Source of the DNA: Eledone cirrhosa
Lineage: Eukaryota
Assembly (NCBI GenBank): GCA_964016885.1
Contig: OZ024751.1
Span: forward strand, 40,486,001-40,550,000
Length of the DNA stretch: 64,000 bases
Direction of reading: 5' to 3'
Shown here piece by piece: positions 30,101 to 33,100 of the stretch. Position 1 is the stretch's first letter, and every line of letters begins with the position of its first letter. Position numbers and translations under genes: made by a program. The notes beneath the pieces were generated by a model. It worked only from the letters and a program-made list of their open reading frames with translations. It made no database searches and had not been told where the DNA came from.

Positions 30101-33100
30101 CCTCAAAATCACTGTCTTCTAAGGCGAAGGTCAGGTTAGGGGGTCAATACCGTATGTAAAAATTTTATAGGATGACAGTACTCGTGATATAAGATTTGAA
30201 AGTGATCAAAATTTTATTATATAATATTAGTGTTAATTCCTCTTAATTTTATTTTTCCTGAATATTCATGTTAAATTTAGAGTGCATCCTATATTCCAGT
30301 GTCTTATATTCTGAAAAATATGGTACATATATATAATATATATATATATAATTATATTCCTCTCCTCTGTTTTCTCTGAGTTTCTAATTAGTTTGAATCA
30401 AATCTTGAATCTCCATCTTGAGATTCAGATTTACTGAGCTAAAAACTTATAAAACTCTTCAGTATTATATTTCAGATATATGTAAAATATATATCTGAAA
30501 TCTTAAACTCTCTAGTACTTCAGATATATGAAATCACTGGTGATTTCAATTTTTTTTAGTTTCATGGATACTCATTTTTTCCTACATATGTTCTACATTT
30601 TTTGAGCAAAAAAACCCTATTCACTTCCTCATTGAAATAAATTCCTCTCAGACTCTAATGTAATGTCTTCTACTGTGTGATCCTCACCTTCACATCTTAA
30701 TGTACCTACATGAAATCTCATTTGATAATGTAGATAACAGCATTTTTTTTTTTTTTTTTTTTTTTTTTTTTTTTTTTTGGACTGCAGATTAACCCTTGCA
30801 CCTTCACCTAGTTAAGTTCTTCATAAACTAACTTGGTGCATTAGCTCTGTTCAGTTTTCTCACTGTTCATATTATTATTATTATTATTCCTTTAAATATT
30901 TTTATTAAATAAGGCACCAGAATTTTTATTAATTCAAGCCGTTTCTCTTCTAATCAAGTTTTTTGCACATTTCTTAAGATTTATATTTTTGATGTTAACA
31001 GTTCAGTTGCTGTTAACTTAAATCTGCTGTGTTTTATTAGAGTCTAGAGTTGGAAATCTATTTCTGAAGGCTTTCTTTGACTTTCAGTTCAGCTATTGTG
31101 AAATCTGGCATTTTAAGATTGTTGTTATCAGTGCCAAGATTGGGTGGGAGGGAAACAGTTTGGTTGAGAAGCAGGGTAGCTAGGCAGGCAGGTAGGGTAG
31201 TAAGGTAGCAGGGAAGCAAGGTAGAGAGACAGATGCTTGTTAGCTGCTGCTGAAATGATATTTTTACTCACCTTGCTGGAGGGCAATAATGCAACTTTTC
31301 CTTCCCCCCCCCCCCCTCTCTCTTCAACCAATCAGCCAGCACAGACCCAGCACAGCACAGCTCAGCTCAGCTCTTTTAAGCTTTTCAGCTACTGCTAATT
31401 TTAATGCTGTTATTGTTGTTGTTCATTCCTCAACTTTTCTTCAACTTCTCCAGAAAGAATTTCTGTTTCATTTTTCGTATAAGTTTCTTAAATAACAGAG
31501 CTTCCGCATCTTTTGTGTGTGTGTCTAGATGAGTTTTCTAAAGAAAGAAAAGTACTGAAAAATCACCTTTGTTTACCTCCAGCAAAATTACTTCTGTAAT
31601 CCTAAAAGAAAAACATTTTAAAGAAAAAGAACAGCAAAACAAAGCAACCCCTCACACACACACACAAGAAAAAAAAAAAAACCTTCAAAATGCGTTTGGT
31701 ACCAATTACTCTTGTAAAGTCTTATCCAACTCCTACCAAAGTTGTTACTGGTTATATACCTTATATAAAATGGGATACACAAAATATTATTACCATTACA
31801 AACAATCAGGAAGTAAAAAAGACAGTTGGTAAGACACTTCTGTTGCATCACTACCTGTTGTTGTTGTCATTAATATATTGTCAACTAGATTTTACAAACT
31901 GAAGTTATACAATGATGGAAATATTTAAAAAAAAGTTAATTTCTGAATTAAGTAATTAAAAAAAAAAAAGATGAAAGAATGAAGGGCAGATCTGGCTGTA
32001 TAGGAAAGATTATAATTATATATAGTAAATAACAATAATTGTTTACATAGGCACAAGGAAATAAATTTTGTGAGAGGGGGGCAGTTGATTATATTATTAA
32101 ATCAATTAGTCACATACTGGGAGCAAATTAATTATCTAACCCCCACCCCACCTCCCCCCAAAGATTATTATCCATAAGTATTTTTTAATAAATTATTTAT
32201 TATATTATCATTTGGTTATCTATAATTAAATCTTAGCTAGTTTGTATTTCAATTGCCAATTTCAATTTACTGATTGAATAAAAATATTTAATTAAAATTT
32301 AGTTTTTCTGTCTGCAGTAGGAAGGACAATGAACACAATTGAAGACCAGTTGTGGTCAATATTAATTAGTGAGCATTTAATGAACACTGGAAGAGAACAT
32401 TTAGCATTCTACTTAAATCTTAAAGATTGGACATTTCATGTTTATTAGACATGTATGGTACACAACTTCGTGTGTGTCTACACAACCATGCCATCACTGC
32501 TAAACATACTCTATTACAATGTAAACACTCAGATGTGCATACTCTGCAACCATGTTAACAAACACACATACTCCAACATTCCACCACACATACACATAGG
32601 TGTGGTGTGGTGTGGTGGTGTGGTACAGACTATATTCTTCTTGTGACTTCTCACAGATTGAAAAACTTTTCATCTGTAACTTTACTTCTAAAGTTTGTAA
32701 TAAATCTGATATCAAATGGTTTAGATTGTAACTAAACTTTCACATTTTATAGTGACTCTTAGTTTGTTTTACAATAAGTAACATGTAGTGATATAGTTAG
32801 AACTACTTTACATGTGTGTACATGTTGTCTAATATCTCTGGTGTAGTAATACAACACACTTCTAGATATCACTGCTCTCCATAGTCTAGATAAATACATG
32901 TTACATATATCCGACTTCATCATTGTTAACATAGGCTGTAGGTTGATGTGTTAGTGAATCGGACTACTGTACAGCAGTATTTGTTCAGGCTCTTTATGTT
33001 CTGAGGTCAATTTCTGTTGAGGTCAACTTTGCCTGTGATCTTTTCTGGGGTCAATAAAATAAAATACCAGTCGATTACTAGGGTTGATATATAAACTTTA

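Follow-up and report, generated by a model that had tools for sequence, protein, structure and literature searches.

The filamin gene of the window

The window analysed here, a stretch of 64 kb from a host genome of about 3.0 Gb, carries most of a filamin gene on the + strand, running from the rod domains to the stop codon at 52299. The paired domains Ig20 and Ig21 of filamins are the textbook force sensor. The 475 C-terminal residues of the window filamin share 60-78% identity with filamins of molluscs and rotifers, and in a tree of 21 rows it clusters with those of gastropods and bivalves (support 96/98). The long-form exon that a predicted short form of the protein would omit, and the nine exons that both forms would share, are the following.

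27210..27338, + strand, 129 nt: long-form exon omitted by the short form, with the end of Ig19 and strands A (inhibitory) and B of Ig20
37740..37904, + strand: first shared exon, Ig20 from strand C onward (matches 2J3S 131-181, E 3.4e-18, and 4P3W 25-75)
38130..38231, + strand: shared exon, end of Ig20 and start of Ig21 (joined frame)
39170..39307, + strand: shared exon, ligand-binding strands C and D of Ig21 (matches 2BRQ, 2W0P and 2K9U, E about 1e-20)
40093..40223, + strand: shared exon, end of Ig21 and start of Ig22 (joined frame)
40950..41067, + strand: shared exon, Ig22 (joined frame)
49281..49451, + strand: shared exon, Ig22 to Ig23 (joined frame)
50495..50710, + strand: shared exon, Ig23 (joined frame)
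51212..51409, + strand: shared exon, hinge 2 and start of Ig24 (joined frame)
52112..52299, + strand: last coding exon, Ig24 dimerisation domain and stop codon (joined frame)

The exon at 27210-27338 matches residues 87-126 of 2J3S, a structure of human Ig19-21 (E 6.6e-8), and retains the Ile-Thr-Arg of strand A. On account of this match, and of those of the next exon and of Ig21, we regard it as the counterpart of exon 40 of human FLNA and FLNB, which is 123 bp long and encodes strand G of Ig19 together with strands A and B of Ig20 (PMC2199218). In human filamin A, strand A of Ig20 covers the CD face of Ig21 and prevents integrins from binding (PMC1948075); judging by sequence match, the window filamin appears to possess the same masking strand. 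The C and D strands of its Ig21 hardly differ from those of the Ig21 chains in structures with bound integrin or migfilin. The C-terminal domain is recognisable as Ig24, the putative dimerisation domain; in the homologous rotifer model, the final domain is 54-56% identical to the Ig24 structures 1V05 and 3CNK.

The contig that carries the window has a second filamin-like match some 8 Mb distant (32490199-32490357, - strand, 43% identity to the Ig20 exon), which is likely to be a second filamin gene. Within the window, the intron inside Ig21 holds 26.5 copies of a 24-bp unit at 94% identity (39357-39992), and three high-copy repeats (15004-15189, 41209-41469, 57666-57926) are near-identical copies of one element. 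A high-copy interspersed repeat at 32970-33120 reaches a depth of thousands-fold in all four sequencing runs compared below, and about 1 kb at 42001-43000 has a G+C content of just 4-5%.

A candidate first exon and its predicted product

The features of interest lie in the intron between the omitted exon and the first shared exon.

31231..31297, no strand: conserved non-coding block immediately 5' of the CCAAT box, with 66 of 67 positions matching in a contig of a second organism (organism A)
31304..31390, + strand: promoter-like island with a C-run, CCAAT, seven CAGCW pentamers and no TATA consensus (from the sequence and counts)
31391..31689, + strand: putative 5' UTR with an in-frame TAA at 31603 and upstream ATGs at 31404 and 31529 in weak context
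31690..31828, + strand: coding portion of the candidate first exon, made up of 46 codons and one base and followed by a GT donor at 31829

In the island, the C-run occupies 31304-31316 and the CCAAT box is at 31328, one of 10 occurrences of this motif on the + strand of the intron, while a count over 27339-37600 gives 20 CAGCW pentamers, of which 7 cluster in 31337-31390. The conserved block could be a promoter-proximal element or the far end of the 5' UTR. Both this block and the exon at 31690-31828 are single-copy in their own genome. Among the ATGs downstream of the island, the one at 31690 has the most favourable context, with A at position -3, where those at 31404 and 31529 have T. The exon ends at 31828/9 with TTG followed by GTAAGA, a donor in phase 1.

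Joined to the nine downstream exons, 31690-31828 gives a frame of 1566 nt with zero internal stops, in which all introns are GT-AG and all phases are compatible; it encodes 521 aa (55.7 kDa). The predicted short form starts at its own ATG behind an in-frame stop, and comprises Ig20* (Ig20 without the exon-40 strands, namely G of Ig19 and A and B of Ig20), Ig21, Ig22, Ig23 and Ig24; it lacks the actin-binding domain and keeps the dimerisation domain. The coordinates, the island, the in-frame stop, the ATG at 31690, the 46 codons, the phase and the 1566-nt frame of the original prediction all held when they were recalculated. On the minus strand, the conserved block contains a consensus donor (AAG followed by GTGAGT) near 31272, some 55 bases 5' of the CCAAT box, which could belong to an antisense transcript that this promoter sends out in the opposite direction.

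Taken from sequence alone, the candidate first exon stands barely above chance. Frames of at least 46 codons with a donor as good were obtained in 6% of block shuffles (n = 300). The donor, which had been called strong, is present and in the right phase, but its strength is middling: it scores 7.5 bits, and 20 of the gene's own 24 donors score higher, although these donors are also the training set of the score and their values are somewhat inflated. It ranks 8th among the 659 GT sites in 27339-37600, and is the sole GGTRAG on the + strand of 31300-33300; this and the cluster of CAGCW pentamers mildly favour the candidate exon. The same intron contains a second ATG with a 42-codon frame and a phase-1 donor of 8.3 bits (30008-30134), which is probably a product of chance. 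What lifts the exon at 31690-31828 above the chance level is its match in a contig from another organism.

Matches in sequencing-run contigs

Four of the five listed runs were compared with 30800-33400, all as assembled contigs; one of them, X1, was guessed to be RNA. An X1 contig of 150 nt from organism A aligns through its letters 16-146 to 31699-31829, gap-free and with 17 differences (87% identity), whereas its final four letters diverge from the intron after 31829, a G that is common to the donor and to the first base of the 37740 exon. A departure from the window at this base is as expected of a splice at 31828/9. The four unaligned letters do not identify the partner exon, and we infer the splice to 37740 from phase and frame. 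The match to the upstream block comes from a second X1 contig and is also gap-free.

Ten of the 17 differences were itemised, and the following selection tests rest on those ten: two are silent, seven codons are changed, and there are no stops. The silent share (2 of 10) shows no excess over the neutral share of 22%, and hence gives no evidence of codon-level selection on the exon. The residue changes are nonetheless milder than random ones (BLOSUM mean 1.0 versus -0.58, or -0.24 when stops are left out; P = 0.023 and 0.035) and keep beta-branched residues (T>V, V>I, I>V, T>S). Conservation of the frame, on which the original prediction was to be judged, is seen in organism A over 131 nt that are free of gaps and, among the differences itemised, of stops; the silent share is neutral.

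A contig of run X5 (organism B, run type not recorded) crosses the donor unspliced, covering 31691-32008. X5 contigs have depths of 2.6 and 5.7 before position 31290, of about 29 across 31347-32008 and of about 12 beyond, a pattern that would fit a start near 31300-31350, although contigs cannot show start or level; the same restriction applies to the X1 contig depths of 233 on the exon and 43 on the upstream block. Cover is nil on the unique intron in X1 and has holes in X2 and X4, and gaps of this kind carry no weight.

Gene models of other spiralians at the same junction

A protein search with the 37740 exon returned 57 proteins of 96-2000 aa. The usual strands A-B precede the junction in 21 of them, three are named full models in which an unrelated N-terminus is joined on at exactly this residue, and the remaining 33 are short frames starting in the intron or inside the exon. 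The clusters of the three named models extend to Rotaria magnacalcarata, R. sp. Silwood1, R. sp. Silwood2, R. socialis (partial) and Adineta ricciae, and the sea slugs Elysia marginata and Plakobranchus ocellatus have models at the same junction. All those listed here, which are undescribed automatic gene models, consist of a Met-started unique N-terminus on Ig20*, then Ig21-24.

CAF1147756.1, CAF2683275.1 and CAF1473535.1: Rotaria, GenBank models
CAF0888909.1: Adineta ricciae, GenBank model
GFR73948.1 (Elysia) and GFN93493.1 (Plakobranchus): GenBank models

In both bdelloid genera the N-termini (136-182 aa) begin alike and carry a common aromatic motif ahead of the junction, and those of the two sea slugs are Ser/Thr-rich and common to both species; conservation within the rotifers and within the sea slugs was reached in 0 of 500 shuffles. 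The end of the Elysia N-terminus looks like intron read-through. Between the window, sea-slug and rotifer N-termini relatedness is not detectable (P 0.11-0.96), and a tblastn search of the window intron with 15 proteins, the sea-slug and rotifer forms included, gave no counterpart of their N-termini (best E 1.3). Compared with the 46-aa peptide of the window, to which they are unrelated, the N-termini of these models are longer (136-309 aa) and Ser/Thr- or Gln-rich. A four-residue match between the start of the window peptide and the end of the Plakobranchus N-terminus was discarded as not significant (P = 0.11 and 0.26).

Adineta ricciae has two filamin paralogues that are 83-85% identical, one with the usual Ig20 junction and the other with the unique N-terminus. 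Since the usual junction sits on another paralogue, the rotifer short form may be a separate gene, and in bdelloids it may have become one by paralogy. For one gene of Patella caerulea there are two models, of 1069 and 1084 aa; the 15-residue difference, which apparently lies near hinge 1, suggests alternative splicing at that place.

At the level of gene models, three spiralian lineages would place a new start on the same junction. We tentatively propose, as an idea that may well prove wrong, that cephalopods, sea slugs and bdelloid rotifers share an as yet undescribed class of mini-filamins, natural forms whose chain would begin within Ig20 and be open from the outset. The intron after the exon corresponding to FLNA exon 40 would then be an ancient switch point, with the ratio of force-gated to force-free Ig21 sites set by promoter choice and by the pairing of short and long chains through Ig24, and with an N-terminal tail particular to each lineage.

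These observations bear on the reading that the segment is a conserved intronic regulatory element or a spurious promoter, in which the open frame is accidental and yields no stable mini-filamin. In its favour are the 6% chance frequency per intron together with the second candidate at 30008-30134, the neutral share of silent changes, the unspliced X5 contig, and the fact that protein searches returned no record with the peptide as N-terminus. It does not account for the organism A contig, which departs from the window at the donor after 131 gap-free bases at 13% divergence, nor for the alternative N-termini that other spiralian models put on the same junction, and we consider it unlikely.

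The N-terminal peptide

Searches of protein sets with the 46-aa peptide, both among longer proteins and among those of near length, gave no relative, and an exact protein look-up found 0 of 4 window sequences. The sole match among 1.84 billion representatives (E 3.6e-4) is to a 1550-aa protein unlike any filamin and was attributed to chance. Nothing resembling the peptide was found in the PDB (E up to 10), Pfam or the Atlas clusters. In Rfam there were three matches, all below the gathering score, and the block at 31231-31297 had none at that score.

In the AlphaFold model of a rotifer form (629 aa) the Ig domains are folded, while residues 1-140 have pLDDT below 50 and contain no strand; in that of a sea-slug form (784 aa) the Ig domains are again folded, and nearly all of residues 1-313 have pLDDT below 50, also with no strand. 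These models are weak indicators, as they come from shallow alignments of 20 rows (pTM 0.28) and from species other than that of the window. A complex prediction of the window peptide with a bivalve Ig20*-21 as stand-in, in which the alignment was not used, had a score of 0.00, which favours neither side.

The original prediction had also entertained the possibility that the peptide replaces the lost strands and acts as a different lock. In this reading the isoform is made, but its N-terminus would fold back onto the CD face of Ig21 as a beta strand, giving a lock to be opened by phosphorylation or competition instead of force. The composition of the peptide (43% Val/Ile/Thr) and the beta-branched residues kept by the organism A changes are compatible with such a strand, and the aromatic motif that two bdelloid genera carry just before the junction could be a replacement for the lost one. 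Against this stand the lack of resemblance in PDB, Pfam and Atlas, the strandless N-termini of the rotifer and sea-slug models (weakly, in view of the shallow alignments) and the absence of a motif common to the lineages. The notion of a lock finds no positive support here and we rate it as quite unlikely; the likeliest role of the 46 residues is that of a flexible tail, specific to the lineage, that serves targeting or docking.

Start codon and exon type

Another reading accepts the transcript and gives the peptide a minor part, either because the upstream ATGs make the exon mainly a regulated leader, or because translation starts at an early Met of the 37740 exon and yields a bare Ig20*-24 chain. 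The five ATGs in 31201-31689, the divergence of the peptide at about the neutral rate, and the start of the organism A alignment at 31699, i.e. 3' of the ATG at 31690, would all suit it. Yet no other ATG downstream of the island has as good a context, and the organism A exon is free of stops and gaps, so that this reading is in our opinion very unlikely. As to the segment being the 3' part of an internal cassette exon at the Ig20 junction of the full-length filamin, in the manner of filamin C, with its 82-aa insertion described in PMC2199218 as 'exactly juxtaposed' to the var-1 region, and of the heart-specific exons 40B/C of FLNB in the same intron, it can practically be set aside, because the stretch from the in-frame stop at 31603 to the ATG has 6 AG sites but no phase-1 acceptor among them, and the tract upstream of the ATG is A-rich, with no polypyrimidine tract.

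A probable open, actin-free filamin

We consider the candidate exon probably real, and it is probably the first exon of the predicted isoform. With moderate confidence, we favour the reading that its product is an open, actin-free, dimerising scaffold made from an alternative first exon. As regards the alternative first exon leading into Ig20 without strands A-B and on to Ig24, the original prediction is supported by the organism A contig that ends its alignment at the donor, by the lack of an in-phase acceptor and by spiralian models with the same junction, while the splice partner and the start are the inferred part of it.

The mechanism would be as follows. An internal promoter would drive a transcript whose first exon, with its ATG at 31690, is spliced to 37740, yielding a short filamin. 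Omission of the exon that bears strand A would leave the binding face of Ig21, which is conserved in the window filamin, open with no need of force; the frame of the new exon is kept in organism A over 131 bases. By analogy with published results for the same cut in human filamins (PMC2199218, PMC1948075), binding would be force-independent, and a force-independent scaffold appears to be the likeliest function of the predicted protein. Short chains pairing with each other through Ig24 would form a small two-site clamp for integrin tails or other Ig21 ligands, and such a homodimer could grip a pair of ligands whether or not there is tension, in competition with the long form. A heterodimer of short and long chains would instead be a one-armed filamin that tethers receptors to actin with no cross-linking.

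In flies, locked-open and locked-closed sensors both damage ring canals and Z-discs (PMC5011733 and PMC11221683). Since both locked states are harmful, a natural open and actin-detached isoform would be a competitor or tuner of mechanosensing. If it is made, it could occupy integrin tails in the absence of force, or turn cross-linking dimers into one-armed tethers, and it would offer a natural test of the effects of the open state in living tissue. An exon boundary common to humans, molluscs and rotifers would have been reused to rewire the sensor. The intron that would host the proposed spiralian class serves, in vertebrates, var-1 skipping, exons 40B/C of FLNB and the filamin C insertion. 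The known mechanism is unchanged by these results, and there is precedent for each ingredient; for specialists, what is noteworthy is a predicted natural copy of the 20*-24 construct that recurs, in gene models, across spiralians.

Comparison with known filamin variants

Mendez-Lopez in 2012 is said to have described filamin isoforms of a mollusc, the mussel, and the structure of var-1 was reportedly given by Pentikainen in 2011; either work may have a bearing on the folding of Ig20* and on novelty. Drosophila FLN90/Cher90 (CherA/B), a scaffold needed at the neuromuscular synapse and also found at Z-discs, has 8-9 Ig domains (PMC5173320, PMC5011733, PMC5521747), C. elegans FLN-1C has 9 (PMC3143143), and a 90-kDa filamin fragment is present in oyster muscle (PMC9925188). 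FLN90 and FLN-1C have their own intragenic start site and, like the predicted form, combine the lack of the actin domain with the presence of the dimerisation domain. They differ from it in retaining both force-gated pairs with their masking strands, at about 90 kDa, whereas the predicted form, with four whole domains and part of Ig20, has no masking strand and a mass of 56 kDa, and is not that isoform. Of the actin-free filamins cited here, those whose domain content is stated all keep the masking strands.

With var-1 of FLNA and FLNB the predicted form shares the loss of the same exon (strand G of Ig19, A and B of Ig20; PMC2199218, PMC1948075), and either deletion of strand A or skipping of exon 40 raises integrin binding (PMC1948075). 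As described there, var-1 arises by exon skipping in a full-length actin-binding chain, is weakly expressed and has no new N-terminus. The 82-aa insertion of filamin C is lineage-specific, largely disordered and placed at the same point of Ig20 (PMC2199218; bioRxiv 10.1101/2023.08.05.552086), and FLNB exons 40B/C lie in the same intron, with the insertion adjoining (PMC2199218). The insertion is internal to a full-length chain that keeps strand A; the predicted form would have its own start, and there is no phase-1 acceptor between the stop at 31603 and its ATG.

A close likeness is to the engineered FLNA(20*-24) and FLNB(20*-24), which coincide with the conserved part of the predicted protein in where they begin and in the domains that they contain; as presented in PMC2199218, they are laboratory truncations that have no N-terminal peptide and bind integrin tails in the absence of force. 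In yeast two-hybrid assays FLNA(20*-24), aa 2168-2647, binds beta1A strongly and FLNA(19-24) binds no subunit, FLNB(20*-24) gains binding to beta1D, beta3 and beta6, and repeat 24 is suggested to aid the binding of 20*-24 by dimerising (all PMC2199218). A search of the literature, conducted mostly outside subscription journals, found no natural isoform that starts inside Ig20 or that is both actin-free and devoid of strand A. Actin-free isoforms and variants that lack strand A have each been described already, and it is their combination in one predicted chain that appears to be new.
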